DNA from: a virus | IMG/VR virus record: IMGVR_UViG_3300037553_000311 | Span: 1-64,000 of that record | Strand: one strand, 5' to 3' | Length of the DNA: 64,000 bases | Part shown: positions 526-63,554 of the stretch, piece after piece | How positions within the stretch are numbered: the stretch's first letter is position 1 | Layout: each line of letters starts with the position of its first letter | Program-made: the position numbers and the translations under genes | The notes under the pieces: model-generated | The model's database searches: none | Told to the model about the DNA's origin: nothing | Seen by the model: only the letters and a program-made list of their open reading frames with translations

Positions 526-550
526 TCTCAAGTATATATTACTATAGTAG
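526..550 (+). promoter_or_regulatory. Early-type promoter t[c/t]tca[a/g]gTATATATtActatagtag. Other copies near 5102, 8322, 22213, 26157, 30847, 38965, 40473, 42735, 54769, 57008, 58398, 59428, 63366
   Basis: 14 near-identical intergenic copies, all on + and upstream of + ORFs. Core resembles the TATATTAC early promoter of phiKZ. Confidence 0.75.
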
Positions 551-741
551 AAGTACATCAGATACAACCAGATGTATCTCTACTGATCTTTGATTAGTAG
601 ATAGCACATCAGATACAACCAGATGTACCTCTACTGATCTAGTAGTATGTATAGATTGTAAATGCATCTTCATCATCCATATATCAACTACCGATATCTA
701 TTGGTAGTTGATTATTTAATCATTAACCATAGGAGCATGAT

Positions 742-1896
742 ATGAGTAACGCAGTTAAAGCACCAGATCTTTCTCTCATCAGTAAATCGAAGAGTCGCAC
801 TATCCAACCGAAGAGTCGCACTATCCCAGTCGACACAACAACTAAAATACAAGAGGCATCTATGTCAGATAAGAAAGATACTACCCCAATCCCATCATCT
901 AACGCTAACGACATCGCTGATGATGGAGTACTCAAATGGACACTCACTGGTGCTGGTGGTGCTGGTAAGAAATCTATCATCAGATACGCTGAAGGTAATA
1001 AAGATACATCCACCCAGATGGTATCGATTGATACGTCAGGATCATCTTCGCTAGGTACTGATATTTCAAATATCGTAGAAATGATCCGTATCAAAGATCT
1101 CAATGGTTCAGGTAAACTCAGAGCTGAGAATCATAAAGTCCTCACTAACTTCATCAGCTCATATGTAAATGATCATCCATTTGAAGATGTCAATGTACTA
1201 GTGTATTCTTTCTCTGGTGGATCAGGTTCAGTCATTGGACCATTACTCACTAATGAGATATTACGTGCTGGTAAAGTAGCTATCGTACTCGGCATTATCG
1301 ATACCGATAGTGAAGTAGATACTATCAATGCACTCAATACACTGAAGACATTACAGAATTATGTATCTAAGCACGATGCATATCTCCCTATCGTACTCTT
1401 TGATAATGATACTACTAGACTCAAAGTAGATAACACTATCGATAAGATACTGGATAATCTCACTAGGTTATTCGATATCCCATATGAAGGTCTCGATAGA
1501 CAAGATCGTATCAAGTTCTTACAACCTAATCACTTCCAAGGTATATCTGGTGGTATCAAACTACTCAATATATCTAGTCAAGATAATGGTGACTGGGAAG
1601 ACTCATCTATAGTTTCACCTGTAGATGAATATGATAAGATCGATGCTACCATGATCATCACTGACCCAGCTACATCTATCAAGTTATCAACTAAATGTAA
1701 TATCACATATAGAGGGTTCCTGACTGATGGATCTAGTAAACCTCTCATAACTAGTATAGGATATGAGATACCTACATCACTCATAGAGAAATTGAATGCT
1801 ATCATACATTCATTCAGATCTATGTCTGTTAAAGAGACTACTGTAATCGATTCTGAATATGTAATCGGTACTGATACTAATGGGTTAGTACTATAG
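742..1896 (+). CDS. phuZ: PhuZ tubulin/FtsZ-like spindle protein
   Basis: GAGGAG N-terminal loop, NGSGK, tubulin signature SFSGGSGS, T7-like GLDRQD; jumbo-phage context. Confidence 0.88.
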   Translation: MSNAVKAPDLSLISKSKSRTIQPKSRTIPVDTTTKIQEASMSDKKDTTPIPSSNANDIADDGVLKWTLTGAGGAGKKSIIRYAEGNKDTSTQMVSIDTSGSSSLGTDISNIVEMIRIKDLNGSGKLRAENHKVLTNFISSYVNDHPFEDVNVLVYSFSGGSGSVIGPLLTNEILRAGKVAIVLGIIDTDSEVDTINALNTLKTLQNYVSKHDAYLPIVLFDNDTTRLKVDNTIDKILDNLTRLFDIPYEGLDRQDRIKFLQPNHFQGISGGIKLLNISSQDNGDWEDSSIVSPVDEYDKIDATMIITDPATSIKLSTKCNITYRGFLTDGSSKPLITSIGYEIPTSLIEKLNAIIHSFRSMSVKETTVIDSEYVIGTDTNGLVL

Positions 1897-1906
1897 GAGA
1901 ATTATT

Positions 1907-4714: not shown

Positions 4715-4889
4715 ATTTCCTACCCCTTATAAAATCATGAGTAGGAGATCCCCTATTTCTACCTGTATATCCCTACGTGACCCCCCATATTTGCTATATT
4801 TCGTGTTTGCTACGTGCAGTAATATAGGCGTTCAGAAATGGGTATTTCAGTAAGTATGAAACTTATCTGAAATTAGCAGTATTTGAGAT
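4715..4889 (+). repeat. Repeat element E1 (ctgtatatccctacgtgaccccccatatttgc...aaatgggtattt). Copies at ~9625-9790 (inverted), 12533-12666, 29060-29150 (degenerate), 38680-38850 (palindromic)
   Basis: Direct comparison; 4760-4889 and 12534-12666 are nearly identical. Confidence 0.85.
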
Positions 4890-5233
4890 ATCTGATGACA
4901 TATTAGGCATTATTTGATATGTCATCTAATCGCTAGATCTGATGACATATTAGGCATAATTTGATATGTCATCTAATTGAGCTAATGTACTACATTTGAT
5001 ACATGATTCTTACACACTCTGAGCATGAGCGAACATCTTTACCTACTATCAAGAGTGCTATCGGTAGCTTACTATTTCAGGAGGAGTGTGATCTTCCGAC
5101 ATCTCAGATATATATCATCATAGTAGAAGGTATCAGCTACTACTTGATACCTACCACTGATCTTCGATTAGTAGTAAGTACATCAGATACTATTTGATAT
5201 GCTACCTGATCTAGTGAATATATAACGTATAGG

Positions 5234-5287: not shown

Positions 5288-6547
5288 ATGAATATGAAAG
5301 TGAATACTGAAGTAATGAATATCGATGGTAACGATGGGTGCGATTTTGATAAAGCAGCTATAGACTCTAATGATAATGAGCATTTTGATAAAGTAGTTAC
5401 TGACGCTAGTGGTAATACCATATGTGTTGGTACTGTCAGATCAGAAATGACCGATAGTCGTGTGGGTATATCATTAGTGAAGTTTGACACTAACCTTAAT
5501 GTACTAGTTAGAAAGGTATATAATGGTAGTGGTGGTGATAGATTCAGACAAGTAATTACTGATTCCGATAATAATATCATCTGTGTTGGATGGAATCATT
5601 CCGAAGGAGCTAGTAATTGGGATGCACTAGTAGTAAAGTTTGACCCTAACCTTAACATATTAGCTAGGACAGTATATAGTGGGACTGATTTGAGTGAGTT
5701 CCGTGGAGTAACAATTGATGATAATGATAACATCATCTGTATTGGTCATATTGCTTCAGAAGGAGCTGGTGGTTGGGATGCGTTAGTGGTGAAGTTTAAT
5801 AGTGATCTCAATGTGCTAGCTAATAAGATCTATAGTGAGACATATTGGGATGAGTTTTATGCAGTAGCTATTGACTCTAGTGGTAATGTCATCTGCACTG
5901 GTCAGACTCAATCAGGAAGAGCTGGTAGTTGGGATGCTCTAGTAGTCAAGTATGATAGTAATCTCAATGTATTAGCTAAGAAGATGTATGGTGGTATTAA
6001 TTTGGATGAGTTCAGTGCAGTAGCTGCTGACTCTAATGGTAATGACATCTGCACTGGTCAGACTCAATCAGGAAGAGCTGGTAGTTGGGATGCTCTAGTA
6101 GTCAAGTATGATAGTAATCTTAGCATATTAGCTAAGAAGATATATGATGGGGCTGGTAGTGATATATTTCATGGGGTAGTTACAGACTCTAATGATAATA
6201 TTATCTGTGTTGGACGTATCTCAGAAGGATCTGGTAATCGTATCGCACTGATAATGAAATTTGACACTAACCTCAATGTACTGACTAGGTATATCTATAA
6301 TGATACTGATAGCGATTGGTTCTATGGAGTTACCACTGATGATGATGACAATATCATCAGTGTTGGATGGACAAATTCAGGTAGTACGTCAGGAGCTGGT
6401 AATTGGGATGTATTAGTGGACAAGTTTGATAATAACCTTAATATACTAGCTAGTAAAGTATATTGTGTGACTGATGATGATGATGACTTTCACACAGTAG
6501 CTACTGACTCTAGTGGTAATATCATAGGCGTTGGATGTACTATCTAA
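5288..6547 (+). CDS. Beta-propeller repeat protein (about 8 blades of ~51 aa)
   Basis: Repeated F.gV.tDsngNiiCvG.t.seg.g..DalvvKfD.nLn.l..k.y motif; conserved promoter and leader upstream. Confidence 0.85.
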   Translation: MNMKVNTEVMNIDGNDGCDFDKAAIDSNDNEHFDKVVTDASGNTICVGTVRSEMTDSRVGISLVKFDTNLNVLVRKVYNGSGGDRFRQVITDSDNNIICVGWNHSEGASNWDALVVKFDPNLNILARTVYSGTDLSEFRGVTIDDNDNIICIGHIASEGAGGWDALVVKFNSDLNVLANKIYSETYWDEFYAVAIDSSGNVICTGQTQSGRAGSWDALVVKYDSNLNVLAKKMYGGINLDEFSAVAADSNGNDICTGQTQSGRAGSWDALVVKYDSNLSILAKKIYDGAGSDIFHGVVTDSNDNIICVGRISEGSGNRIALIMKFDTNLNVLTRYIYNDTDSDWFYGVTTDDDDNIISVGWTNSGSTSGAGNWDVLVDKFDNNLNILASKVYCVTDDDDDFHTVATDSSGNIIGVGCTI

Positions 6548-7352: not shown

Positions 7353-7498
7353 CTCACCTTTTCATTTATTTATCAATCTTATTACGTCATCTACATCGGT
7401 AAACAAATATAATACTATAGTGGAGTATCAAGTATTATCCGATACTCCACTGATCTTCGATAATCTATCAGTCACCTATATTAAAATGGAGCCTACAT

Positions 7499-8302
7499 AT
7501 GAAAAACATCATCAACATCCTATTAAGAAAGTTATACAATCAGATACCTAATGAGCTACTAGAACTCACATTCAAACCTCATCAATCTAACCTATCACTA
7601 GATAGTATCATAAAAGAAGAAATCATCGTCAATATCGTATTAGTAGATTGTAATTTATATGCTGGTAGACCTACTAAAGTCACATTGACTAGAGAGATGC
7701 TAAAAGATATCAAATCACCTAAGACATCATCTATCATAGGTAATCAATCCATCTACTACATACCACCTGAATATCGTGAATTTAGAGATATCAGTGTCAT
7801 ACTAGATTTAGCATTCCCTACAGCGATAGGACTAGCCTCAGTATATCCTCAGCATCAACAATATGGTAGGACAGTACAAAATGCAGCAGATGATGCCCTC
7901 ACTAGTTTCAATAGACAACCCTCATATCAGACACCTCATGCTATCCTCTTAGGTAATAATTCAATCAAACTATCACCTCCCATGATGCATACTGTAAATT
8001 GGATAGTAAGTTGCATGTTGTCATATGATGATGATTTCACTAACCTAGGTAATAATTGCATCAGACCCTTAGAGAAATGTGTACTACATGCTACTGAAGC
8101 ATATATATATAATAAACTTAGAGTAGCTGTAAATCAAGGATACCTAGAGAGTGGATCACAGTTATCTAGTATATCGGATATCGTAGGTGACTATTCAGAC
8201 GCTAATGAGAAATATGATGAAGCTGTATTACGATTCAGAGGCGCTTCTATATTTGACAAAGAGACTATGTTAGATTATCTATCACTGACTATCGGATCTT
8301 GA
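7499..8302 (+). CDS. Probable conserved phiKZ-like virion protein
   Basis: 267-aa ORF with GGAG RBS; resemblance to jumbo-phage structural proteins is from recall only. Confidence 0.5.
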   Translation: MKNIINILLRKLYNQIPNELLELTFKPHQSNLSLDSIIKEEIIVNIVLVDCNLYAGRPTKVTLTREMLKDIKSPKTSSIIGNQSIYYIPPEYREFRDISVILDLAFPTAIGLASVYPQHQQYGRTVQNAADDALTSFNRQPSYQTPHAILLGNNSIKLSPPMMHTVNWIVSCMLSYDDDFTNLGNNCIRPLEKCVLHATEAYIYNKLRVAVNQGYLESGSQLSSISDIVGDYSDANEKYDEAVLRFRGASIFDKETMLDYLSLTIGS

Positions 8303-8521
8303 CATATGTGATCTCACGCTATCTTAGGTATATATTAACATAGTAGTAAGCATATCAGATACTACTTGATACACTTACTGATCTAGCGATTAGTAAGCAT
8401 ATCAGATACTACTTGATATACTTACTGATCTAGCGATTAGTAAGCATATCAGATACTACTTGATATGCTACCTGATCTTAAAGTCAGATATATCTGACAT
8501 GATACCTTAGGAGGGTAAGTT

Positions 8522-8782: not shown

Positions 8783-9352
8783 ATGACTACTGATCATATA
8801 AATAACATGTTCTCAAACGAGGACATACTAATATTCGTAGGTAGTACCGATAATGAAAACACAGCAGTAGCACATATGATGAATATATCACCTCCATCTT
8901 ATGTCAAAATCATGTATGATGGGATGATACATCTAGCTGAATCTCACGTCACTAGATCATTCAATGATGTATGTCTAATGTCTAATGGTAATATCGTATG
9001 TATAGGTGAATGTACTATAGATGGTGATACTACTTCTATGATAGTGATGTTTGATTCAGTAGGTTATACTGTACAAATAGGGTCACCTACTGATTATACA
9101 TTACATAGTATTGAACGTCATAGTACTGACATGTTCATATGTGAAGCTAGTGATACATCTACATGTAGTAATGTCATCTTCAATAATACGTTAGATATAG
9201 AATATATTACCGATGTAGTAGATATAGTCATTGACGATGTACCGATTCCACAACATGATGATGATAGTAATGTAGTGATCAGATTTATCGTATGTACTTC
9301 ATTGATAATATCTGCTGCGTTAGTATATTACATTAGTAGGTCAGTAACATAA
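8783..9352 (+). CDS. Degenerate beta-propeller protein with a C-terminal transmembrane anchor
   Basis: FNDVCLMSNGNIVCIGE matches the blade motif; hydrophobic C-terminus FIVCTSLIISAALVYYI. Confidence 0.6.
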   Translation: MTTDHINNMFSNEDILIFVGSTDNENTAVAHMMNISPPSYVKIMYDGMIHLAESHVTRSFNDVCLMSNGNIVCIGECTIDGDTTSMIVMFDSVGYTVQIGSPTDYTLHSIERHSTDMFICEASDTSTCSNVIFNNTLDIEYITDVVDIVIDDVPIPQHDDDSNVVIRFIVCTSLIISAALVYYISRSVT

Positions 9353-10049
9353 TAAAATCCTCATCCATAGCATACCTGTAATAGGTATGCTATGGATATC
9401 GTATCTTATACTACCTGATCAGATGACCTCACTCTCAGCAGTAGCAAACATCTTTCACTACTACTCCAAAGTGCATTTATGTAATGGATCTATACGATAC
9501 TAAATCTATGTAGTTTTGCTACTCTAGATGCATCATATATGATAAGTGATAATGTGATATAAATCTACTCTAATTATACTTAGAATATATGCCTAATATG
9601 TTATCCGATCTAGCAAATATCTCAATTTTCAGATAAGTTTCATACTTACTCAAATACCCATTTCTGAACGCCTATAGAACCGTGTGTAGGAAACACGAAA
9701 TATAGCAAATATGGGGGGTCACGTAGGGATATACAGGTAGAAATATGGGGTCTGTCACCCGTGGTTTTATAAGGGGTAGGAAATGTGCTATTTTAGCACT
9801 TTATTTTAGCTGATATATAGCTAATCTAATCAGATATCAGCTACATTTACCATCTGATTCCATACTAAAAATATATACACTCTGAAGAGTAGCAAAAGAT
9901 ATCTGCTCATCTAGATATTATCACCTATCTCATTCACTCGTCATACCTATTAGATCCATTATCGCCTCCAGCATGATTACATGTCATCTATATCATCTGC
10001 GATAGACTTGAACATATCTAACAGTTATCATTAGTATCCATATAGAAAA

Positions 10050-10500
10050 CTACCAGTCACCTTACAGCTACTACTCATATACATTAGTTACCTACAGTAA
10101 TTATATTCATTATCTATCACCTTACAGCTACTACTTATATATCTACATCTACCAGTTACCTATAGTAATTATACGTATATCTGTTATCACTCTTACTACA
10201 GTTACTACTCATATACTACATACAATTACATCTACCAGTTACCTATAGTAATTATACGTATATCTGTTATCACTCTTACTACAGTTACTACTCATATACT
10301 ACATACAATTACATCTACCAGTTACCTACAGTAATTATATTCATATCTATTATCACTATTACTACCTATATATCTACATCTACCAGTCACCTATGGTAAT
10401 TATGATTATATCTATCACCTTACAGCTACTACCTATATATCTACCAGTTACCTACAGTAATTATATCTATTTCTATCAGTCACTCTTACAACTACTACAT
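10050..10500 (+). repeat. Degenerate G-poor tandem repeat (60-83 nt units; near-exact 83-nt duplication at 10148-10313)
   Basis: Recurring ccagttacctayagtaattat and cagytactac motifs. Confidence 0.85.
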
Positions 10501-10645
10501 AAATCTATGATCATCATACATTCACAACATGCTCATTTCTGAGCATGTTGTGATATATTCATATATGTATACCTAGTGAATGAATCGTATAATCATAACT
10601 GTATCCATATCACATGTACTCTGTGTAAATCGACTATATCAAACC

Positions 10646-10805
10646 TACTCATATAGTCATCCAAATCTGTCCTTCTAATTCTATTGCACACTACAGTATA
10701 GTACTACTAGTATCTTTTATATTACTCTACTCATATAATCATCCAAATCTGTCCTTCTAATTCTATTGCACACTACAGTATAGTACTACTAGTATCTTTT
10801 ATATT
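10646..10805 (+). repeat. 81-nt tandem duplication
   Basis: ctactcatat..tcatccaaatctgtccttctaattctattgcacactacagtatagtactactagtatcttttatatt occurs twice. Confidence 0.9.
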
Positions 10806-12813
10806 GATCTATTCATACTTTACACTCTAATTCTAAAAATATAAGCTCTTATTCACCTAACTTTGCTAATTTTTTAATCTTTACCATAGCAACTGTCGTA
10901 ATAGGCTCTCCGTCGTACCGTGTAGTTTGTACTGTATGAACGAGTTACAAATATTAGTTAGTGTGTATCTTAGAATTTCTAATTCTATTCTATTGGGAGA
11001 AGCGAACTTTGATTCGGAGAATTAAAGTCGCTTCGTAACTAATCTTTTATATATAGGCAGTATATGTAAGGTGCTTGTGTTTTTCCATTTTGTGAGATGA
11101 AAAATCAGATTGCTTCCAAAACAAATAACACGCATCGTAACTTATGTTTTTTTTATTCACACTTCTCCACTTAAAAAATATATAAAAAAAAAGGCGGTGG
11201 ATATATAATAGGTAAGACACTAACACTGCTACCACCGCCACCTTGCGACTGGAGGCGAAGCCGCCAGGAGCTAGTGCATAAATGACCAGGTGCTATAATG
11301 ATCGTCTAGTTATTATTTTATCAATCTCAACTCATGTGAAATTACCATTCTTCTAGAGAGTGGTTCTATCTATCATGGTGAGTGATCTATAATCAAAACT
11401 TGCAATTCCAAAAAGTGAATTTTTGAGTAAATTTATCAACTATTGATGAATTTTTCAATTTACAAAACTGCTCAGTCCCACGTTTACCGGACGTAAGCTT
11501 CACGCCCATGTAGCATGGACGTAGTACGAATAATTTCAGCTCACCCCTTGTTCTATCGGGGATGGTACCAAGCACGGTAATACCGAACGTAAGTCAATTG
11601 AACCCAATCTACGTGAAAGTAGATTGGGTTCAATCGTTATAATATCGGTGGTGAGTCATATTATTATCTCTCAATCACTATAGTATCGCTCGTAGTGATA
11701 TGTCTAATTAGGTGATGAGTGATGAACATCTACATATATTGAGATCGCATATCTAATTTTAATATCAAATACCTACTCCGAAATTAGATATATTTAATAA
11801 ATTTGATATAGATATTAGCTAAAAAGTACATATATCCGATGTATCCAATCTACTCTAAATAGACATATATTCAATCTACTCTAAAATTAGATATCAGGTA
11901 ACGGATCAATTAGTATCTAATATATGCCACATGATCTAGTGATTAGTAGAAGGTATCGGATAATACTTGATACCTCCCACTGATCTAGTGATTAGTAGAG
12001 ATACATCAGATACAGCCAGATGTACTTACTGATCTTCGATTTGATGAAATACATACTACGTTCGATGTAGTAGGTGATTAGCTGATTTTACACTCTTCCA
12101 TTCCTCGGGGTATAAGTTTTGCTAAAAATGCTTACGAGCGGTCTCAGAAGCAAATCATACATTTAGTACAGATGTGATTTGTAGTCATAAATCACCAGTG
12201 CTTATATTACCGATACTAGTGATTTTATCGAACCACTTTCCTCAGGGAATATATCACTTATTTTACATATAAATCACCAGCACCTATAGTGTAATGATAA
12301 TTGCAAATACTCTTCCAATCCTCGGGGTAGATACTTTTTTACTCATATCAGATGACCTCACTTTCAACATGAGTAGATATCTTTCGCTACTACTCAAAGT
12401 GCATATATTTTTAGCATAGAATCAGATGGTAAATGTAGCTGATATCTGATTAGATTAGCTAGATATCAGCTAAAATAAAGTGCTAAAAAAGAGGGTCTGT
12501 CACCCGTGGTTTTATAAGGGGTAGGAGAGGTGCTATTTCTACCTGTATATCCCTACGTGACCCCCCATATTTGCTATATTTCGTGTTTCCTACGTGCAGT
12601 AATATAGGCGTTCAGAAATGGGTATTTCAGTAAGTCTGAAACTTATCTGAAATTAGCAGTATTTGAAGATCCGGTAGTATATTCTAAGTATATTTGAGTA
12701 GTATCTGAATATATCTGATAATGAGATAATGTCAGATATAGTAGTGATGATATATGAACTAAACGTATCCATAGCATACCCGTAATAGGTATGCTATGGA
12801 TATCGTGTATGGA

Positions 12814-42899: not shown

Positions 42900-43127
42900 A
42901 TGAATATGAAATATCAAATCAAGATAGAAACTGGCAATGACGTGATCGACATCAATATTGAGATGAGTTTAAAAGAAGCAATCGCCCTATCACGGGAATC
43001 TGAAGCGGTTATATACCGCTTCTGCAAAGAGTCTGATATCAAGATTACCGACATCGGTGAGCTCTTCAGTACTGCCATGTCGAAACTGAAGGAACGCATG
43101 AAGCGTTCCTCCTCCTCCAAAGAGTAG
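42900..43127 (+). CDS. Small early protein
   Basis: Promoter at 42735; same ccttaggagggtATGAATATGAAA start block as the propeller genes; hairpin and T-tract at 43132-43190. Confidence 0.7.
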   Translation: MNMKYQIKIETGNDVIDINIEMSLKEAIALSRESEAVIYRFCKESDIKITDIGELFSTAMSKLKERMKRSSSSKE

Positions 43128-43360
43128 TACCTCCCCCCAACTTATCTAGTAGTATTAGATAAGTTGGGGGTTACTACTTTATTATTTTTTTATAATAACT
43201 ATTCATAGCTACTAGACTAGGTTATATAGTGAAATTATTTATCATAGAACCTCATAATCTTATAGATCAGGTAGTATATCGAGTAGTGTCTGATATGCTA
43301 TCTAATCACTAGATCAGGTGTCTGTTTTTTGTAATCTAATAATACACGGAGAATGTAATC

Positions 43361-44722: not shown

Positions 44723-46582
44723 ATGTTCATATTGCAGAATAATATCCCACTGACTAAAGTTGGGTCAGTATATAAGTATAATTTAGGATTTGAGACATTA
44801 GTAGTAACTGATCCATCATTAGTGATTGATAGATTGAACTACAGAATAGATCGGACTATCGGTCTGAGTCGTAGTTATGATCACATGATGAACCTTAATA
44901 TATCAGCTAAGGTATCTATCACATCCGATCCATTTGAATATACATGTACTAGTGATACTACCAGATTATTAGCTATCGAACAGATAGTCTCTCATGATGG
45001 TGAGATCATAGATATCGCATCTAACGTAGGTACTGTAGAGTATCACACATATAGTATCAAGTCGAATGATATATATGGTAGTGAAATAGCTGGAGCACTT
45101 ATCAATGTCACTGTACCAGAAGACGCTACAGATATCATATTGACAGTGACATCTACTCTGACTAATGATACAGGTACTACTGAACATGTCACATATCTAT
45201 CTACAGGTGAGGTAGCTACTGGTACTGGAGGTACTGGGGCTACTGGAGCTACTGGAGCTACTGGAGCCGATGGGAGAGATGGAATAGATGGAATAGATGG
45301 AATAGATGGAATAGATGGAGTCGATGGGAGAGATGGAGTCGATGGTGCTGATGGTGCTGATGGAATAGATGGAATAGGTGGAGTGGGAGCATTACCACCG
45401 ACTGCACCATTACTAGATATCCCATTCAAGATTAATATGGATACTTCCCAAGGTAATATAGTAACTAATTATATCAGAAATTCACCAGCTACTCACATTG
45501 ACCGGTATGGTATGATGATAAGTAGTGATGTAAATACACCAAGATTTACTAAAAATGGGATGATGCGTGAAGGTGTCGGTACTAACTATTTTCTTAATAG
45601 TAACTCACTTAACGCATATACACTAACTAACGCTACTCAGTCAATCGGCTATGATAGTGTATTAGCTATAGATGTAACTAACGTAGATAAAGACGGACAA
45701 TCACCTTGGACATTAGATGCTGATACTACATTACCTATCAGTGATCATACTGATGTGACATATAGTGTCAGATTACGTACAAGTGATCCATTATCTGTAG
45801 AGATGCAGATATTAGATGATGCCGGTGTAGTACTAGCTTCATCTATAATCACTACTAGTGATACGACCGAATTATATACAGTATCAGCAGATATATCTAA
45901 TATATCATCAGGTACTGTATCAGTGAAGCTCATTCCAGATAGTAATTCATCAGTATCTCGATTAGTAGTAGCTACATCTCAAGTGGAACCATTACCATTT
46001 GTATCTAGTTTCATACTTACTACTGATACACACATGACTCGTGAAATGGAATCGATCGTTATCAGTTATGATGATAATTTCCCTAGTAATGATCATGGTG
46101 TCACTGTACTCCTCGATGTATATATTAGAGGTACGTTACCATCACTAGATTCATGCTTCACATCAGGTAGTCTATCTATGTATATATCAGATCATGGTAG
46201 TAGTGTTCCTGTAGCTAAAGCTGCCATATCGGAAACTGATAGTACAGGTACATATCCTATTAATAATAAACTTAGAATGGGAGTAGTATATGATCCAGAT
46301 AATAATCTACTACAGTTATATGTAGATGGTGTAATTGTCGATACTACAAACATCACAGGTGATACTGATGTACCATTAGGTTCTGGGATGTCTCTTAGTG
46401 ATTTCTTTACTCAGGTCTATGATGGTAGTTATACTGATGATACATCTCCAGTACTATTACAGGGTAATGTTGACTTTCAATCAGCATTACTTATGATAGG
46501 TTCAGAGTTTACATTTATGGAATTTAGTAACTTAAGAGTAATATCTGAAGTATGTAGTGAAGTACAGATGATGAATTTATAA
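44723..46582 (+). CDS. Tail-fibre-like protein with collagen-like Gly-X-Y repeat and C-terminal lectin/LamG-like region
   Basis: (GAT)n(GID)n run at ~45215-45390; RNSPATHID...PRF...EGVGTNY; LYVDGV. Confidence 0.65.
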   Translation: MFILQNNIPLTKVGSVYKYNLGFETLVVTDPSLVIDRLNYRIDRTIGLSRSYDHMMNLNISAKVSITSDPFEYTCTSDTTRLLAIEQIVSHDGEIIDIASNVGTVEYHTYSIKSNDIYGSEIAGALINVTVPEDATDIILTVTSTLTNDTGTTEHVTYLSTGEVATGTGGTGATGATGATGADGRDGIDGIDGIDGIDGVDGRDGVDGADGADGIDGIGGVGALPPTAPLLDIPFKINMDTSQGNIVTNYIRNSPATHIDRYGMMISSDVNTPRFTKNGMMREGVGTNYFLNSNSLNAYTLTNATQSIGYDSVLAIDVTNVDKDGQSPWTLDADTTLPISDHTDVTYSVRLRTSDPLSVEMQILDDAGVVLASSIITTSDTTELYTVSADISNISSGTVSVKLIPDSNSSVSRLVVATSQVEPLPFVSSFILTTDTHMTREMESIVISYDDNFPSNDHGVTVLLDVYIRGTLPSLDSCFTSGSLSMYISDHGSSVPVAKAAISETDSTGTYPINNKLRMGVVYDPDNNLLQLYVDGVIVDTTNITGDTDVPLGSGMSLSDFFTQVYDGSYTDDTSPVLLQGNVDFQSALLMIGSEFTFMEFSNLRVISEVCSEVQMMNL

Positions 46583-53402: not shown

Positions 53403-53449
53403 GCACTCATCCATAGCATACCTATCTGGTATGCTATGGATGATGTATA

Positions 53450-54613: not shown

Positions 54614-54933
54614 GATGTTATATCCTTTAGTTATGTAGTAATAGGTCATCCTAATACTATAGTATCGCATCTAGTATAATAGTCTACATATGAGTAGTAA
54701 CTTATTTACCCTACTGATGTATTCATGTAAATCTGGTAATATTATAGCTGACATAAGATCAGTCACTATTTCAGGTATATATCACTATAGTAGATATACA
54801 TCAGATACTACTTTGATGTACCTCCACTGATCTAGCGATTAGTAGATATACATCAGATACTACTTTGATGCACATTTATCTTAACCAAGTACATGGTATG
54901 ACATCATGTACACATATTAAATAGGAGATCATA

Positions 54934-55131
54934 ATGATTGAAACATTCAGGTACGAAAAGAATAATCATCAACCAATTAGAGTACTCGGTAATATAAATG
55001 ACCAAGTCGAGTATATGGATGAAAGCGCTATAGATTCTCATACACGTATATATCACTTTGGTGACAATATGTCTATCATTGATGCTATGGGTGAATCACG
55101 AGAGTATTTCGGTAGCACTTTTGTAGTTTAG
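54934..55131 (+). CDS. Small early protein
   Basis: Promoter at 54769, hairpins and AGGAG RBS. Confidence 0.6.
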   Translation: MIETFRYEKNNHQPIRVLGNINDQVEYMDESAIDSHTRIYHFGDNMSIIDAMGESREYFGSTFVV

Positions 55132-55258: not shown

Positions 55259-56830
55259 ATGCCAGTAATCGAAAGTGTAAAAGATCAAGAAGTAGGTAAT
55301 CCAGTATCTGGTACTATCAATGAGCGCCCAGCAGCTCCAACGATTGGTGACATCATGAGTATTCATGGTATCAGAGGAGGTCAGTCTCAAGAAGCCTCTG
55401 AATATATCGATCGTATCAAGAAAGCTGTACAAGCTTTCACCACTACTGAGAAAGTACAAGTACGACGTCTCGGTAATGATGAAAACATTACCGTGTTTAC
55501 AGTAGGTAAAGATTCAGTGATCCTCAGGACAGATTCTGAAGTAGTATCTAATCTCAATGAACTATTAGTAGAAGCTGATCTTCAGCGTGTCTATAAAGAG
55601 TTCAAAGCGATTTACCCTGAGAATCAGTTAATCAACATCATCGCATGTAATAAGTACATGTACGGGAAAGCTTCCCAGATGACTACTTACATTAAAGAAT
55701 TATTACATACTCGTAACTCTGAGTTCATTAAGAACTTCACAGTGAAATCATTCACTCGTAAGTATAAGCTCGAAATCGATACTGATGTAACTGCCGTGAA
55801 ACAGTATCTTGAGATGAATAGCCCTAATGCTACACGTACTGTAGACTTCGGGTTCACAGCATCAGTAGTAGATAATGAGCAAGATAGTAGTGGTGGATAT
55901 CAGAAGCGTGAACCTATCTTCGCTGTCAGTGGATATGTAGACTTTGTTGAGATCGCTCAAAGTAGCGGATATATCGCTGGTTTCAGCACAGGACCAAGTC
56001 GATTCCAACCGATAATTCACGTGACTGAAATCTGTAGTACTATCGTATCATCTAAGATACTTGCACTCGCTATCCCATTAGCAGCAGAGATCTTTGTCAA
56101 TCGGGAATTGTGGAAGACACCATTCCTCACGCTTGGACGTACTGATATCAATATCGGTAATCTTCTTCTTGATCCAGAGAAGAATACTCCATATAAAGCA
56201 AAGACAGCTACTGATATCGCTCGTACATTTACTAATATCGAACCACCATTATTCACAGTAGATGTAATCAGTGGAGCTGCTGGTCTTCCTGGTCTGAATC
56301 GTTTCACTAACCCAGATCGTCATCACCTTATCTCTCAAGATATTGCTGACTTCTTGGATACAGATGAAAGAGGAATTCTCCCATCAGATGGAAAAGCAGT
56401 ATCCTATAATGTCGATCGTGAGATTGTAGGTATCGTGGAATCAGCTAAAGGTCTCAAAGGTGCTTCGTTATTAGACACTAGAGATATCAGTTACCTATTC
56501 GCTACATCTCTCTTGGGATATAGTGATAAGATACGCCACCTCATGCGTGGTAGTAGTGATCCAATTGCCAAATATGAACTCATCAAAGAGATCATCGGTG
56601 AAGTAATCCCTACAGGTCTCAATACGATCGCATTGATCAATGGTGATTTTATCACTAAGATAGCTGTCATCATCTCATCTAAGATCGACATCGTATTACC
56701 GACTAACAATACTGCTCAGCAGATAGATATCTCCAAATACACTGATCTCACTTACAATGGTGTAAGTACGTTCAGTACATCTAACAATAGTAATATGAAC
56801 TTTCAGCAAGGTAGTTATACCAGCTACTAA
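55259..56830 (+). CDS. chmA: Candidate chimallin (phage nuclear shell protein)
   Basis: Early promoter upstream, AGGAGG RBS, MCP-like codon usage, upstream of nvRNAP beta' as for phiKZ gp54-gp55; VSGYVDF...FQPIIHVT resembles chimallin from recall. Confidence 0.55.
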   Translation: MPVIESVKDQEVGNPVSGTINERPAAPTIGDIMSIHGIRGGQSQEASEYIDRIKKAVQAFTTTEKVQVRRLGNDENITVFTVGKDSVILRTDSEVVSNLNELLVEADLQRVYKEFKAIYPENQLINIIACNKYMYGKASQMTTYIKELLHTRNSEFIKNFTVKSFTRKYKLEIDTDVTAVKQYLEMNSPNATRTVDFGFTASVVDNEQDSSGGYQKREPIFAVSGYVDFVEIAQSSGYIAGFSTGPSRFQPIIHVTEICSTIVSSKILALAIPLAAEIFVNRELWKTPFLTLGRTDINIGNLLLDPEKNTPYKAKTATDIARTFTNIEPPLFTVDVISGAAGLPGLNRFTNPDRHHLISQDIADFLDTDERGILPSDGKAVSYNVDREIVGIVESAKGLKGASLLDTRDISYLFATSLLGYSDKIRHLMRGSSDPIAKYELIKEIIGEVIPTGLNTIALINGDFITKIAVIISSKIDIVLPTNNTAQQIDISKYTDLTYNGVSTFSTSNNSNMNFQQGSYTSY

Positions 56831-57146
56831 TCATCCTAAGTCTATCATCCTCCATAGCATACCTATCTAGGTATGCTATGGAGCATTTAGTGTGTCATGT
56901 AGCTTCTCTTTTTATGCACTCTTAGGAGTAGCAATAAGTATCTACTACTCCTAAGAGTGTAGTTCATCAGTAGCTTACTATTTCAGGAGGAATGTGTCCT
57001 CACTACATCTCAGGTATATATTACCATAGTAGATGTACATCAGATACTACTTGATGTACATCTACTGATCTAGTAATGAGATAACGTATAGAATAATCTA
57101 TACACATGCTAAAAGTCAGATATCTGACATGATACCTTAGGAGGGT

Positions 57147-58262
57147 ATGAATATGAAAGTAAGTAATGAAGTAATTATTACCGATGGATGTGATTTCGAT
57201 AAAGCAGCTATAGACACCGCTGGTAATATCATCTGCATTGGCACTGTCAGATCGGAAGAATCTGATACTAACTTTCCACTAATAGTTAAGTATGATGTCA
57301 ATGGTGATATCATACTTAAGAAGATGTATTATGATATTAATTTAGATAAGATCCGTGGAGTAACCACTGATTCTAATGGAGACATCATCTGCATTGGCAC
57401 TGTCAGATCGGAAGAATCTGATACTAAATATCCATTAATAGTTAAGTTTGATACTAATCTTAATGTACTAGCTAAGATGATATGTGATACTGGTGATGAT
57501 TGGTTCAATAAAGTTACCACAGATGCTAATGACAATATCATCTTAGCTGGATGTGCTCTCTCAGAAGAAATTAGTGGTATTGATGCATTAGTGGTTAAGT
57601 ATGACCCTAATCTCAATATACTAGCTAGAAAAACATATGGCGATGGTGGTGAGGAATTTAACCAAGTAACCACTGATTCTAGTGGTAATGTCATATGTGT
57701 TGGATGGACAAATTCAGAAAGAATTGGTACTAATGCCGATGCATTAGTGGTCAAATTTGACAATGACCTTAACATAATTACTAGTAATACATATGATGAT
57801 ACCGATATTGATTGGTTCTATGGTGTAGCTATAGATTCCAATAACAACATCATATGTGTTGGACATACTAGCTCAGGTAGTACGTCAGGAGCTGATTGTT
57901 ATGATGCATTAGTGGTTAAGTATGACACTAATCTTAACATGCTAGCTGATACGATATATAGTGGTATTGGTAATGATTGGTTCGATGCAGTAATCACTGA
58001 TTCTAGTGGTAATGTCATATGTATTGGATGTACTGATTCAGGTAGTACGTCAGCAGCTGGTAATTATGACATGCTAGTGTCGAAGTATGACGCTGATCTC
58101 AATGTATTAGATAGTAATACATATGGTGATACTAGTAGTGATGAATTATATGCAGTAGCTACTAATCATAACGGTGATATAGTATGTGTTGGAGATACAT
58201 TATCAGATAGTACGTCAGGACCTAGTAATTATGTTATACGAGTAGTAAAGTTCACTAGCTGA
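57147..58262 (+). CDS. Beta-propeller repeat protein (about 7 blades)
   Basis: Blade repeats and shared leader. Confidence 0.85.
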   Translation: MNMKVSNEVIITDGCDFDKAAIDTAGNIICIGTVRSEESDTNFPLIVKYDVNGDIILKKMYYDINLDKIRGVTTDSNGDIICIGTVRSEESDTKYPLIVKFDTNLNVLAKMICDTGDDWFNKVTTDANDNIILAGCALSEEISGIDALVVKYDPNLNILARKTYGDGGEEFNQVTTDSSGNVICVGWTNSERIGTNADALVVKFDNDLNIITSNTYDDTDIDWFYGVAIDSNNNIICVGHTSSGSTSGADCYDALVVKYDTNLNMLADTIYSGIGNDWFDAVITDSSGNVICIGCTDSGSTSAAGNYDMLVSKYDADLNVLDSNTYGDTSSDELYAVATNHNGDIVCVGDTLSDSTSGPSNYVIRVVKFTS

Positions 58263-58584
58263 GATCATACATGATCTAAACATTCCCATAGCATACCGAT
58301 ATCAGGTATGCTATGGGTTTATTATTTTTTATGCACTCTGAACATGAGTAGATATCTTTACTTACTCTCAAGAGTGAATCCATCTAATATACTACTATTT
58401 CAAGTATATATCATTATAGTAGAAGGTATCAGCTACTACTTGATACCTACCACTGATCTTCGATTAGTAGTAAGTATCAGATACTACTTTGATGTACATC
58501 TACTAATCTAGCGAATATATAGCGTATAGAATAATCTATACGTACACTAAACGTCAGATATATGACACGATACCTTAGGAGGGT

Positions 58585-59289
58585 ATGAATATGGAAGTAA
58601 GTAATGAAGTAATGAATATATATGGTAATGATGGAGATCAATTCGATAAAGCAGCTATAGACACCGCTGGTAATATCATCTGCATTGGACATGTTAAATC
58701 AGAAGGATCTGATACTAAATATCCATTAGTAGTTAAGTATGATACTAATCTTAATGTACTATTTAAGAAGATGTATTATGATATTAATTTGGATGAGTTC
58801 CGTGGAGTAACTACGGATTCTAGTGGTAATATCATCTGCATTGGATGGACTGTCTCAGAAGAAACTGATTCTGATGTTGCAGTGGTAGTCAAGTTCGATA
58901 CTAATCTTAACATAATCGCTAAGAGAATATATGGTGATAGTGGTGGTGATTGGTTCAATGGAGTAGCTACTGACTCTAGTGGTAATGTCATCTGTGTTGG
59001 ACATACTACCCCAGGTAGTACGTCAGGAGCTGGTAGTTATGATGCATTAGTAGTCAAGTTCGATACTAATCTTAACATAATCGCTAAGAGAATATATAGT
59101 GATAGTGGAGATAGTGGTGATGAATTTGACCAAGTAACTACTGACTCTAATGATAATGTCATCTGTGTTGGATGGACTGATTCAGAAGGAGCTGGTAGTT
59201 CTGAATATCCTAATCGTGTAGATGCATTAATAGTGAAGTATGATAGTGATCTTGATATACATTGGACGTACTCATTCAGAAGTATCTAG
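58585..59289 (+). CDS. Beta-propeller repeat protein, short form (about 4 blades)
   Basis: Blade repeats and shared leader. Confidence 0.82.
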   Translation: MNMEVSNEVMNIYGNDGDQFDKAAIDTAGNIICIGHVKSEGSDTKYPLVVKYDTNLNVLFKKMYYDINLDEFRGVTTDSSGNIICIGWTVSEETDSDVAVVVKFDTNLNIIAKRIYGDSGGDWFNGVATDSSGNVICVGHTTPGSTSGAGSYDALVVKFDTNLNIIAKRIYSDSGDSGDEFDQVTTDSNDNVICVGWTDSEGAGSSEYPNRVDALIVKYDSDLDIHWTYSFRSI

Positions 59290-59584
59290 TAGTGATGATA
59301 CATGATCTAAACATACCCATAGCATACCTGATATCGGTATGCTATGGGAATATTATTTTTATGCACTCTGAACATGAGCAAACATCTTTACCTACTCTCA
59401 AGAGTGAATCCATCTAATATACTACTATCTCAAGTATATATTACTATAGTAGAGATGCATCAGATAATACTTGATACATCTCTACTGATCTTCGATTAGT
59501 AGAAGGTATCAGATAATACTTGATACCTCCTACTAGATCAGATAGCGCATCATATTAATAATCACACATAGGAGATACCACATC

Positions 59585-61090
59585 ATGAAAGTACTACCAA
59601 AGATACTCAACCTAGACGAGCTCTATCATAAGACCCCTAACAAAATCATCTTCAATGAACTACTCATCAGTAAGACACCAGAAGAAATCATAGATATCAT
59701 CTGTGATGTAGGTAGTGATAAATCAGACACATTAGCTAGATGCTCATGTGATGCACTCGTAGGTAATTATTACGAAGGTCTCATCTGCGCTAAGTGTAAT
59801 TCTAAATGCATCAGTTCACTCTACTCTAATATCACAATAGATACATGGCTAGAGATACCTAACTCTATAACTAAAGTACTCAATCCACAAGTATATATCA
59901 TCCTATCTAAATGGATGGGTAATAATGCTAAGAAGGTACCTTACCTAGATACTATCGTCAATATCAAAGCTGAACTAGATGAAGAACTCAAGCCTCATAT
60001 ATTAGGTCAAGGCTTCAATTACTTCTATAGTAACTTCAGTTCTATAATCAATCACTTTGCTAATATCAGAGCTAAGAAACCTTCTACTAAAGCATTACTC
60101 AAGTTCCTAGATAATAATAAGCATAATATGTGGTGCACTAAGCTACCAACTGTCAGTAGTATATTACAACCAGTGACTAAAGCTAATGGATTTGTAAGAT
60201 ATGTATATCCTAATATCGGATACCTCATCAAGTCTATTATCAATCTCAATGGTATACTCTTATCAGAGAAGATGATGAACTTTAGTGTGAATCATATAGA
60301 GAGACATTTCTTCGCTGTATATTCAGCATTCATTGATTATGTCACAACTATAGCTAAAGAACGTCTCCCAGCAAAGAAGCATCTACTACGTAAACATATA
60401 TTTGGTAGTAGACTCCATTGTACAGCTAGGTCAGTAGCTATACCACTCATAGTAAATCATGAAGCAGATGATGTACATATCCCATGGAAGATAGGAGTAT
60501 CTTGCTGGAAGTATCACATCATCTCTATGTTGATCAATAGACATAGTCACACGATAGCTGATGCATTTAACAGAGTATCTAAAGCTATCAATGTATATGA
60601 TCACACGATAGATAAGATAATGCAAACACTCATCAAAGAGTGCCCGTATAAAGGTCTACCAGTACTAATCAATCGGAACCCTTCACTACAGATCGGTTCT
60701 ATACAGTTACTCTTTGTAACTAAAATCAAACCAGGTTTCACTAAACCACCAACACTGATTGAAGAAGACTCAGTGGATAATATGATACTAACAGGTGGAA
60801 AGGTCACGAATAAGGTAAAGTATAAGTTTCCAAAAGAAGTGACATTAGCTGTAGACGATGGTACCATAGCATCATCTCCACTAATCATCGCTGGTTTCAA
60901 TTTAGATTATGATGGGGATGAGTTACATGTATTCCCAATATTCGAGATGAACATGGTACCTAAGTTAAAGGTACTACATCCAGTATCAAAGATATTCAGC
61001 AGTAAGTACATCGGAGTTTCTAATGATGTATCACTTAGTAACCAGCAGTTTATTCTCCTAGACGGGTTTGTAAACGATCCTGATATCTGA
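59585..61090 (+). CDS. Non-virion RNA polymerase beta' N-terminal subunit (phiKZ gp55-like)
   Basis: CSC...CAKC Zn finger, RKHIFGSR..TARSV, NRNPSL, catalytic NLDYDGDE. Confidence 0.88.
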   Translation: MKVLPKILNLDELYHKTPNKIIFNELLISKTPEEIIDIICDVGSDKSDTLARCSCDALVGNYYEGLICAKCNSKCISSLYSNITIDTWLEIPNSITKVLNPQVYIILSKWMGNNAKKVPYLDTIVNIKAELDEELKPHILGQGFNYFYSNFSSIINHFANIRAKKPSTKALLKFLDNNKHNMWCTKLPTVSSILQPVTKANGFVRYVYPNIGYLIKSIINLNGILLSEKMMNFSVNHIERHFFAVYSAFIDYVTTIAKERLPAKKHLLRKHIFGSRLHCTARSVAIPLIVNHEADDVHIPWKIGVSCWKYHIISMLINRHSHTIADAFNRVSKAINVYDHTIDKIMQTLIKECPYKGLPVLINRNPSLQIGSIQLLFVTKIKPGFTKPPTLIEEDSVDNMILTGGKVTNKVKYKFPKEVTLAVDDGTIASSPLIIAGFNLDYDGDELHVFPIFEMNMVPKLKVLHPVSKIFSSKYIGVSNDVSLSNQQFILLDGFVNDPDI

Positions 61091-61264
61091 CCATATTACA
61101 CTCTAATCTCTATAGCACACTATTACAGTGTGCTATAGAGATTATGTAATAACTTTTAATAGCATCTTACCTATATTATGAGAGATACGTCGTCCCACAT
61201 GGAGTTCGTATCAAATACGATAATCAACACGATAAGTTAGTCGTGACATTTAAGGAGAAGTATA

Positions 61265-63070
61265 ATGAATTCATTAACAGCACCTGGTAAGATGCACTGT
61301 TTCAACTGTGGAAAATACAAGCTAGAGAAACACTTCATGGGTAAACCATCTGGACGATTTGCAATCTGTATGAATTGTATTAATGAGTATCTACCTAACG
61401 ACAAAGCTCAAATCACTGACATGAAACCAGTTCATTCTGGAATGTGTACTAGTGATAAATGTAATCGTACTACTGACCTATATACATTCAATGACAAGAT
61501 CATATGCTTACCATGTTTATATAAGTTATTAGTTAGTTGTATGACTGGTGATAATAGTAATTATATTACATGCTCTCGATGTGGAGACAATCAACCGATA
61601 TCTTCTTTTGCTAATAGTGGTAGAACAGTTAACTGGGGTAAGAAGTCAATATGTCGAGGATGTATCAGTGGGAGCGATCACGTTAAGCATAAACTTATAT
61701 CAGATATGACTGATAAAGAAATTACAATCACTGAGAAGAAGTGTGGTCATTGTGGAGTAGTGAAAACTATCAATCACTTCAATCGCCGGAATACTTCAGA
61801 CGATGGTCTTGCCACACATTGTCAGGTATGTACTAAGTATATAAGAGATTGTCGAACAGCTAATTTAGCTAAGCTTCCAGATAAGAATCTACCTATCGAT
61901 GAATATACTGATCTATTAAAACATGTTCACTTCATATGCATCAAATGTAATTCACCCAAACAACTTTCTAATTTCCCTAGCTTTAAAGATACATATAAAC
62001 ATGTATGCAATAGTTGTACAACATCCAGATTATCAACAACAGCTACTAGTACGTATGCTGATTTTCAAATCAAGTACAAAGCGGCTAATACTAATCTAGA
62101 ACACGAAGATGTCCAAAGGTGCTCTAATTGTAAATCGATCAAACCACTATCTCATTTTCATCAGCACCTCAATGGTGTAGGGGGTGGAATTTCAAAGACC
62201 ACGTCATGGTGTAAAGCTTGTAGGGTAATTCAGGCAAAGGATCGATGGGGAGATATAAAAGATCATCATGCGGGTGTATGTAAGAAATATAAAGCTAAAT
62301 TCCCTGAGAGACGTCTAGCTACTAATTTAGTTAGAACCTCTTTGTTAGATGTCGATGGTATCGTATCTAGATTACCAAATAATTATGTCTATCATCATTG
62401 GAACTATTCTACTGAACATCACTTAGATGTTATCCAATTGAGTAAAGCTATTCATATCAACTTACATTTAAGATTAGAATATCATAGAGATCTTGAAACA
62501 GGTACATTCATATTTAGAGATAAGAAAACAGGTGAGCTTTTAGATACTAAAAAGAAGCACGTGTTGGTTATTGATGAGATCAAAAGTTCAAATCCTAAAC
62601 TAATTGAACCTATAATAAGTGATCGTCAAGGATTGAAGACTAAATATATAACTAGTAATAAACCTTATGCTAATTTGATAGTACCTGTCACAGATGAGAC
62701 TGAAAAGGTATTCTGTAGGTCTTGTAAAAACTATCTACTGCCTGCATATTTTAATGAGGTACAGACTAATGGTAATGTTAAATTCATTTATGATGTTTGT
62801 ACTAGATGTAATACTGTATTAGGAGCTAGACACGATGTGAATAATGATCCAGAAATCAGTAGTATAGATGAGTTGAATACTAAGGATACTCGTGATTACA
62901 GTATCGTTTCGAAACATTGCTATGGGTGTTTAGAATTGAAACCGTTAGCATCATTTCCTCGATCAGCTGCTAATATTTTAACTGGTAGGCATCGGTATTG
63001 CGCCGATTGTGCTAAGTATATACGTGGTACTGACAGTAAACAGGATCACATCAATCATGATGAGTTGTAG
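61265..63070 (+). CDS. Multi-zinc-ribbon protein with a putative HNH nuclease domain
   Basis: Many CxxC pairs of the KxCxxC..K....F type; YHHWNY...DVIQL..AIHINLH is HNH-like. Confidence 0.6.
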   Translation: MNSLTAPGKMHCFNCGKYKLEKHFMGKPSGRFAICMNCINEYLPNDKAQITDMKPVHSGMCTSDKCNRTTDLYTFNDKIICLPCLYKLLVSCMTGDNSNYITCSRCGDNQPISSFANSGRTVNWGKKSICRGCISGSDHVKHKLISDMTDKEITITEKKCGHCGVVKTINHFNRRNTSDDGLATHCQVCTKYIRDCRTANLAKLPDKNLPIDEYTDLLKHVHFICIKCNSPKQLSNFPSFKDTYKHVCNSCTTSRLSTTATSTYADFQIKYKAANTNLEHEDVQRCSNCKSIKPLSHFHQHLNGVGGGISKTTSWCKACRVIQAKDRWGDIKDHHAGVCKKYKAKFPERRLATNLVRTSLLDVDGIVSRLPNNYVYHHWNYSTEHHLDVIQLSKAIHINLHLRLEYHRDLETGTFIFRDKKTGELLDTKKKHVLVIDEIKSSNPKLIEPIISDRQGLKTKYITSNKPYANLIVPVTDETEKVFCRSCKNYLLPAYFNEVQTNGNVKFIYDVCTRCNTVLGARHDVNNDPEISSIDELNTKDTRDYSIVSKHCYGCLELKPLASFPRSAANILTGRHRYCADCAKYIRGTDSKQDHINHDEL

Positions 63071-63554
63071 ATCAGAATGTCTAAGTAAGTCAAGCATATA
63101 TCTTATATAGATGAACTCTATACTAAACTCTCATAACGCTCTCTACATCGGGAGCGTTATGAGAGAGCGTGTGATGATGTTTTTATTAGCTGATGATCCA
63201 CTCTAATAATAGAGCTTCTCTTTTTTTACGGATGCACTTTCAGCATGAGATAATATCTTTTACTACTACTCAAAGTGCATATATTTTTAGTATAGAATCA
63301 GATGGTAAATGTAGATATTCATATCGGATCTTTGATATATCCCTAGTTACTATATAAGCTCTATATTTCAGGTATATATTACTATAGTAGAGATGCATCA
63401 GATGATACTTGATGCATCTCTACTGATCTCTGATTAGTAGATGTGCATAAGATACAACCTGATGTACATCTACTGATCTAGTAATGAGATAGCGTATAGA
63501 ATAATCTATACACACGCTAAAAGTCAGATATCTGACATGATACCTTAGGAGGGT

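Follow-up and report, generated by a model that had tools for sequence, protein, structure and literature searches.

The first 64 kb of IMGVR_UViG_3300037553_000311, a linear virus contig of 92,684 bp from an uncultured phage, constitute the window analysed here. This window contains a dispersed family of stem-loop units, most of which follow early promoters without any gap, in arrays of 1-3. We favour the reading that these units are transcribed 5′-terminal stem-loops on a recombining terminator-promoter-leader cassette, where they would protect or insulate early mRNAs. Judged from the DNA, the chances that this reading is right are about even.

The family itself is well defined. A covariance model (R1), built from 27 units and used with a cut-off of 40 bits (E < 1e-5), recovered 36 units in the whole contig, 31 on the + strand and 5 on the − strand, and 27 of them fall in the window. 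R1 additionally picked up two loop-inverted units and a few degenerate ones, and its opposite-strand matches at the same places are palindrome echoes. A search with the 17-nt loop plus closing pairs (ATCAGATAMTACTTGAT, at most two mismatches) gave 22 occurrences in the window vs 0.28 expected from shuffles. Each unit is about 44-50 nt long and opens with (GAT)TAGTAG. A 5′ arm of variable sequence that closes with ATC comes next, then the loop of 11 nt, a 3′ arm starting with GAT, and CTACTGATCT, which a linker of 2-4 nt separates from the GATTAGTAG of the next unit. Since these lengths are not multiples of 3, the units are not coding. The stems comprise 14-17 bp with one or two internal mismatches, with a minimum free energy (MFE) of −9 to −25 kcal/mol. 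The loop and its ATC/GAT closing pairs are near-invariant and form the most conserved part, whereas the stems are variable. The loop reads AGATAMTACTT, with the variants AGATACAACCA, AGCTACTACTT and GGATAATACTT, and it is quasi-palindromic, so that ViennaRNA frequently shows a 7-nt loop instead.

A preliminary description of this DNA had named hairpins at 13 sites, and all 13 hold the element; the loop variants (AGATAMTACTT, AGATACAACCA) and linkers also match what had been described. The compensatory stem changes reported there are real. Indeed, four mid-stem pairs covary, alternating between AU and GC or between UA and CG, and the alignment contains 36 double-change cells vs 16.9 in shuffles; none of 500 shuffles reaches 36, and controls with the partner slid give at most 9. 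When the alignment is sorted, a handful of stem families emerges (AAGGTATC, GAGATGCATC, ATGTACATC and AAGCATATC), together with poorly pairing units that start at 40489, 5166, 58462 and 39078. Since these chimeric units carry arms of different families, it seems that crossovers occur in the loop. The covariation goes back to a small number of stem families that duplication and recombination have multiplied. Together with its flanks, the linker (CTACTGATC-nnn-GATTAGTAG) itself forms a 9-bp hairpin, which gives the arrays an alternative fold with unit hairpins alternating with linker hairpins.

The position of the units relative to the early promoter is the second line of evidence. This promoter reads (tttC)AGGTATATATYACTATAGTAG, also written AGGTATATATYAC-TATAGT-AG or AGGTATATATTAC-(TATAGT)-AG, and TATATATYACTATAGTAG, with up to two mismatches, occurs 15 times in the window, always on the + strand, vs 0.22 expected. 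Twelve of the 14 good promoter copies in the window lead at zero offset into 1-3 units, as do 20 of about 25 copies contig-wide into a unit, and hairpin 1 always begins at the TAGTAG that closes the promoter motif. Since the last unit stands at a variable distance from the start codon (about 37-100 nt) and the downstream leader is frequently unrelated, the arrays are anchored to the promoter and not to the ribosome-binding site (RBS). At contig position 78565 a half unit runs directly into the RBS, which places the unit inside the 5′ untranslated region (UTR).

The promoter motif resembles the early consensus of phage AR9, AAATATATATTAT-(6N)-G+1, and also the virion-RNA-polymerase consensus of phiKZ (PMC5312081), the AT-rich core ATATATTAY being common to all three phages. 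Transcription in AR9, phiKZ and phiR1-37 starts 6 nt after the motif (PMC5312081; PMC7598289). Applying this rule, we infer a +1 at the A or G that ends TAGTAG, thus at the foot of hairpin 1. If +1 is assumed at A17, the first paired base lies between +1 and +9 in 19 of 21 leaders, and the first 55 nt of the leaders have a mean MFE of −13.9 kcal/mol vs −7.8 for random windows. The four strongest promoters without the family (42742; contig 68319, 68931 and 72620) lead instead into an unrelated hairpin at +3 to +7, which suggests that this phage generally prefers structured 5′ ends. Another conserved early leader, about 140 nt long, stands behind the same promoter at 42742-42900, contig 68319-68477 and 72620-72774; it opens at about +7 with a hairpin of 9-11 bp that is unrelated to the family, and its end is formed by the same RBS, CCTTAGGAGGGTATG.

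According to the favoured reading, the units would be the first 45-150 nt of early mRNAs made by the phage virion RNA polymerase, and TAGTAG would double as the promoter end and the 5′ arm of hairpin 1. Such a message would begin with a 10-17-bp stem-loop and have almost no free 5′ end; one or two more units may follow. Their most likely job would be to shield or insulate the earliest transcripts from 5′-end-dependent decay (by RppH with RNase E, or by RNase J), and they would also insulate the RBS against variable upstream sequence. Through its near-invariant loop and closing pairs, each hairpin probably also makes a sequence-specific contact, either with a protein or with an RNA. From other systems, 5′-terminal base pairing is known to block RppH and RNase E, and RppH needs two or more nucleotides to be unpaired (review PMC3997798). 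The ompA, papA and T7 phi10 leaders (Emory, Bouvet and Belasco 1992, cited in that review) are 5′-terminal stem-loop stabilisers of mRNA. The helix of such stabilisers begins about 0-4 nt from the mRNA 5′ end; here, by the AR9/phiKZ rule, it would begin at +1 to +9, near the predicted 5′ end and, as in those leaders, independently of the downstream gene. Those examples are, however, single hairpins whose loop is not conserved, whereas the contig has a dispersed family with an invariant loop and tandem copies, placed at 5′ ends by a predicted start site. Should transcripts of the virion polymerase indeed begin with these hairpins, a jumbo phage would have in them a way to protect or standardise its first messages before making any protein. 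phiKZ meets the same need later, countering the RNA degradosome with the protein inhibitor Dip (PMC4980113).

A structured cis-RNA tag on early mRNAs had been proposed in the preliminary description, and part of this proposal stands, given the fixed promoter offset, the promoter type and its start rule (PMC5312081), the variable distance to the start codon, and the conserved loop on covarying stems. The more specific proposals made there, an export or translation signal for a phage compartment or decoy sRNAs, drew no support from this analysis. The fixed relation to the predicted +1, the conserved-loop/variable-stem pattern and the 31:5 orientation bias all speak for RNA. Other observations weigh against it and against the reading that we favour. 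Sense and antisense sequences fold equally well (−15.9 vs −16.5 kcal/mol, p = 0.3), so that folding does not single out the + RNA as the strand under selection. Of about 40 units, seven (five inverted, two loop-flipped) present the complementary loop in the + transcript, the five inverted ones all lying in spacers or leaders transcribed from the + strand. Two arrays or units are located outside leaders (11941, and 22037 on the minus strand), and several chimeric units pair poorly. With +1 at A17, moreover, an RNA could not form the lower part of the hairpin 1 stem, the conserved TAGT/ACTG pairing. The covariation rests on about 4-6 duplicated stem families and comes entirely from paralogues in one genome. 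Replication template switching in quasi-palindromes can yield covariation without selection. Because such switching in DNA palindromes can also give compensatory changes, covariation among paralogues is weaker evidence than covariation among orthologues. Finally, the family is missing from relatives whose promoters are the same or AR9-like, and most of their leaders show no 5′ structure at all.

The gene set of the contig argues for a phiKZ-like, PhuZ-encoding jumbo phage as its source, since it comprises a PhuZ tubulin gene (742-1896), a gene for the beta-type subunit of the non-virion RNA polymerase (nvRNAP; 59585-61090), the gene for a phiKZ-type major capsid protein (36340-38529) and further genes for an S80 prohead protease, a ribonucleotide reductase (RNR), a terminase, a DnaB-like helicase and PolB. 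The contig has a G+C content of 35% and represents about 32% of the genome by estimate. Its RNA polymerase (RNAP) subunit shows at most 28% identity to any sequenced phage, and no sequenced phage matched at the nucleotide level. The best metagenomic relative, L092, has an RNAP subunit 63% identical, and the relatives P0002-P0004 stand at 58-61%.

Outside this contig the hairpin family was not found, and it appears to be lineage-specific. Rfam gave 0 matches at the gathering threshold in the window. Exact-pattern scans of IMG/VR for the loop, promoter and linker gave scattered single chance matches only, and the core 19-mer had 9 scattered single exact matches and no arrays in GTDB (one genome each of 185,579 prokaryote species). 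Two IMG/VR records share the 18-mer promoter, in 3-4 copies each, and have no hairpins. In about 1.2 Mb of loci around RNAP-beta homologues R1 detected nothing. Repeats in one further locus, L095, were considered as leader elements and rejected as coding repeats. The family is absent from L092 despite the same promoter at the syntenic site; there the promoter sits upstream of the small leader open reading frame (ORF) of a 524-aa gene, and the leader is non-homologous. L092 comes from metagenome Ga0114934 and uses the promoter variant of the window. From the same metagenome come L097 and L098 (RNAP subunit 41-43% identical, G+C 25%), whose early promoter is identical to the AAATATATATTAT of Bacillus phage AR9 and whose leaders are short and mostly unstructured. 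The early leaders of AR9 are likewise unstructured (mean MFE −2.75 kcal/mol over the first 45 nt). The transcriptome papers on phiKZ and 201phi2-1 report no such element (PMC8244752, PMC11512511, PMC10914365), and the 5′ UTRs of phiKZ are mostly 31-40 nt long with no hairpin family reported (PMC8244752). The early promoters of AR9 and phiKZ share with the contig the AT-rich core and the inferred start-site spacing, but differ in their leaders. Phages of this kind do not require the element in general, since it is missing from relatives that use the same type of promoter. With the element known from one uncultured contig only, its generality is low.

Around the hairpins, a larger module is repeated. 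Most promoters are preceded by two further structures, a CCATAGCATACC/GGTATGCTATGG hairpin that resembles an intrinsic terminator and has a T tract, and a conserved bulged hairpin. The latter (CACTCTGAGCATGAG...AAGAGTG) stands 40-70 nt upstream of many early promoters, usually preceded by the CCATAGCATACC/GGTATGCTATGG hairpin, and occurs at 5003-5057, 21455-21509, 22124-22178, 40397-40451, 58322-58376, 59352-59406 and 63223-63277; it may be an extended promoter or terminator. A small hairpin, GTCAGATATCTGAC, and the RBS CCTTAGGAGGG recur on the downstream side of many cassettes. Whole modules are 84-91% identical over 160-310 bp ahead of unrelated genes, and many promoter modules precede paralogous repeat-protein genes. 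A complete cassette would then read terminator, bulged hairpin, promoter, hairpins, sometimes a common leader, and RBS, and its copies would recombine mutually, spreading the module before accessory and core genes. Comparison with L092 is consistent with such mobility. In L092 the 524-aa gene is followed by the RNAP gene after 82 nt without a promoter between them; in the window, two repeat-protein cassettes, each with promoter and hairpins, separate the corresponding 523-aa gene from the RNAP gene. Because both genes are adjacent in L092 and two cassettes intervene here, the hairpin leader of the RNAP gene looks like a by-product of cassette insertion.

The nearest known kind of element is the PeSL (promoter-early stem-loop), a mobile regulatory cassette of T4-type phages (Arbiol et al. 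2010, PMC2839356; Comeau et al. 2014, PMC4122927), and the likeness is functional and evolutionary, not one of membership. Like a PeSL, the contig cassette is a repeated intergenic module of early promoter, stem-loop and RBS, present in near-identical copies mostly before accessory genes, and it seems to sit where a related phage shows insertions or replacements. PeSL indels arise by module recombination; here this comparison is limited to L092, with two cassettes between otherwise adjacent genes. The PeSL promoter is sigma-70-like (−35/−10, for host RNAP), whereas that of the contig is of the jumbo-phage virion-RNAP type. The PeSL stem-loop overlaps or precedes the promoter and terminates upstream transcription, a task that falls in the contig to the separate CCATAGCATACC...GGTATGCTATGG hairpin with its T tract; the contig hairpins, in contrast, form arrays of 1-3 in the leader, downstream of the promoter, share a conserved loop of 11 nt and lack a U tract. 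New here are the use of a phage-polymerase promoter, the tandem arrangement, and a loop that is conserved while its stems covary. The cassette also illustrates how a phage-polymerase promoter and leader could travel with inserted genes and end up driving core genes (PhuZ, RNA polymerase subunit), and so compact a module (promoter, 5′ hairpin, RBS) would suit expression systems based on jumbo-phage polymerases.

The resemblance to PeSLs raises the question of whether the units matter mainly as DNA, that is, as homology patches or palindromes of a mobile cassette driving gene gain, loss and swapping, with any RNA effect incidental. Near-identical modules flanking unrelated genes, chimeric units such as crossovers in the conserved loop would give, and the two cassettes inserted between genes adjacent in L092 all fit this explanation, as does an inverse copy of a unit with its linker at a gene 3′ end (22037-22082 vs 11941-11986). 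A homology patch, however, could do without a hairpin, without covarying arms around a conserved loop and without a start fixed at the predicted +1, and unrelated leaders likewise start with hairpins. We regard this explanation as unlikely, though it deserves some weight.

Of similarly low probability is that the hairpins serve mainly as a loop-specific protein-binding tag on virion-polymerase transcripts, with stems that present the loop and a copy number that sets avidity; the tag could hand early mRNAs to ribosomes, move them out of an early compartment, or modify the polymerase in a nut/put-like manner. The conservation pattern, in which the 11-nt loop and ATC/GAT closing pairs are kept and the stems vary, agrees with this, as do the arrays of 1-3 units with a conserved linker and their anchoring to the promoter instead of the RBS. 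Yet the complementary loop appears in seven units, the loop comes in four variants or more, and the element is absent from relatives with the same promoter type. Pairing of the loop with the RBS or another target was also considered and rejected, as no complementary site is enriched, and no partner was identified. Like lambda nut (boxA + boxB) and HK022 put, the units are promoter-proximal hairpins of early transcripts in which a loop of specific sequence is accompanied by a conserved linear element; unlike them, they have no N-like partner and are far longer than boxB. Since each cassette has a terminator and then a fresh promoter, read-through is not needed, which argues against antitermination. 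A slightly more doubtful version would make the loop the docking site of a dedicated protein, virion-delivered or from the host, that marks virion-polymerase transcripts, the 5′ arrays selecting the earliest mRNAs for protection, translation or compartment exit. If true, the loop would serve as an RNA "address tag", a feature so far undescribed among jumbo phages.

It is still less probable, in our estimation, that the hairpins act as single-stranded or cruciform DNA, either as palindromes resembling repetitive extragenic palindromes (REPs) and bacterial interspersed mosaic elements (BIMEs) and handled by an HUH enzyme of the REP-associated tyrosine transposase (RAYT) type, or as a promoter-proximal structure needed by the virion polymerase. 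Both strands fold equally well, the units occur in clusters and in both orientations, and covarying arms would fit any extruded hairpin. As in enterobacterial REP/BIME elements, these are dispersed imperfect palindromes in transcribed intergenic DNA, with GTAG at the 5′ foot; REPs also carry GTAG at this place. The contig units differ from them in being tied to promoters, with the 31 to 5 orientation bias. A search of the contig, about 32% of the genome, for a Y1 transposase (PF01797) returned only a 14-bit noise match inside the Peptidase_S80 ORF, and no RAYT gene was found there. Five promoters lack the family altogether. The hairpin promoter of N4 type does not offer a parallel either: it is recognised by the virion polymerase, has 5-7 bp and a 3-nt loop and lies upstream of +1, whereas the contig hairpins, with stems of 14-17 bp and loops of 7-11 nt, are located downstream of the AT-rich motif. 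As for other DNA-level functions, GATC clustering (a Dam/SeqA idea) was rejected, GATC being not unusual in the contig.

RNase III processing sites that trim the leader to a defined stable 5′ end, as in early RNAs of T7 and SP82, seem improbable. The units are repeated in early leaders, and internal ones can form 17-bp helices with internal mismatches (GATTAGTAG...CTACTGATC), but these fall short of the roughly 20-22 bp usual for RNase III substrates, a search of the contig revealed no phage RNase III gene, and nothing specific indicates cleavage. Processed decoy or anti-defence small RNAs, e.g. CRISPR-repeat mimics, are very improbable: although tandem structured repeats without spacers stand behind strong early promoters, the unit exceeds ordinary CRISPR repeats in both length and degree of pairing, the exact core 19-mer has no arrays among the prokaryote species searched, and every array continues into mRNA.

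Site by site, the core genes named in the preliminary description, phuZ and nvRNAP, indeed stand behind hairpin leaders. The PhuZ leader (533-640, +) contains the promoter at 533-550 and units at 542-589 and 592-640, with loop AGATACAACCA, and that of the nvRNAP beta-type subunit gene (59435-59540, +) contains a promoter and two units. Repeat-protein genes are preceded by four arrays on the + strand. The array at 5109-5212 (promoter 5109-5126; units 5118-5163 and 5166-5212, the second chimeric) leads 5288-6547, and that at 38972-39122 (promoter; units 38981-39026, 39029-39074 and 39078-39122, the third chimeric) leads 39203-40339, this block being 91% identical to 26078-26391. At 57015-57071 a promoter and one unit with a perfect 17-bp stem precede 57147-58262, and at 63373-63479 a promoter and two units precede 63555-64808. 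The array at 58405-58509 (+; promoter and two units, the second chimeric) is the leader of 58585-59289.

The remaining promoter-linked arrays are also on the + strand. At 8329-8478 the promoter is followed by units 8338-8384, 8388-8431 and 8432-8478, then by a leader hairpin GTCAGATATATCTGAC and the RBS CCTTAGGAGGG. The array at 22220-22323 consists of the promoter and units 22229-22275 and 22276-22323. At 26164-26316 a promoter and three units, the third degenerate (26270-26316, 23 bits), lead 26407-26862, and at 40480-40582 the promoter with units 40489-40535 (chimeric) and 40537-40582 leads 40634-41227. The array at 54776-54881 (promoter; units 54785-54833 and 54837-54881, the latter weak with 29 bits) is the leader of a small ORF (54934-55131) and of the 523-aa gene (55259-56830).

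Several units had been overlooked in the preliminary description, the chimeric ones among them. At 7406-7456 (+) a weaker promoter copy and one unit form the leader of a DUF7484 gene (7499-8302); the loop of this unit (7415-7456) is the reverse complement, AAGTATTATCC, and its flanks are still in the sense orientation. A variant family of two units on the − strand (4885-4975), which has GATGACATAT/ATATGTCATC as its stem and CAAATWATGCCTA as its loop and shares the linker AGATCTAGCGATTAG with the other units, is located upstream of the RNR large-subunit gene (4619-2517), where a canonical early promoter is absent. The lone inverted unit at 22037-22082 (−), immediately past the stop of ORF 21651-22031, is identical to 11941-11986 apart from the first base, and it seems that unit and linker were copied inversely to this gene 3′ end. 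A lone, diverged inverted unit at 43264-43310 (−) lies between the + genes 42900-43127 and 43361-44710.

The two units at 11941-12035 (+) have no promoter; a degenerate inverted unit lies ahead of them (about 11885-11935). They are located in a 3.4-kb region (9350-12810) without any ORF longer than 64 aa. This region also holds tandem repeats (83 bp × 2.7 at 10144-10365 and 82 bp × 2.1 at 10645-10817) and copies of a dispersed element of about 130 bp, found also near 4760-4890 and, inverted, at 9600-9780. The region may represent an origin or one end of the genome, or else a graveyard in which cassettes have decayed.

The 523-aa gene (55259-56830) had been labelled chimallin in the preliminary description. 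It shares 54-55% identity with the 524-aa gene of L092 (984-2558), and both adjoin the nvRNAP beta-type gene. No PDB, Pfam, PHROG or phage match was obtained, the ESM Atlas gave nothing usable, and the AlphaFold model of the protein is poor (predicted local distance difference test score, pLDDT, 37). As a candidate label, chimallin derives only from the conserved position beside the RNAP gene. The shell protein gene of phiKZ occupies the corresponding position.

Other features of the contig are more peripheral. A tRNA scan came up empty. The paralogous genes built of 156-bp (52-aa) repeats, at 5288-6547, 39203-40339, 57147-58262, 58585-59289 and 63555-64808 and also at 1-160, are in their majority carried on hairpin cassettes; the sole member searched, 5288-6547, had no match in Pfam or PHROG. 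Between the RNAP gene and the next cassette, 61265-63070 encodes a 601-aa protein with zinc-finger matches of Lar-like and HNH-endonuclease VII type and a Stc1 domain. Finally, a 9-bp tandem repeat (Gly-X-Y, collagen-like) occupies 45235-45405 within a tail-fibre-like gene (44723-46582).

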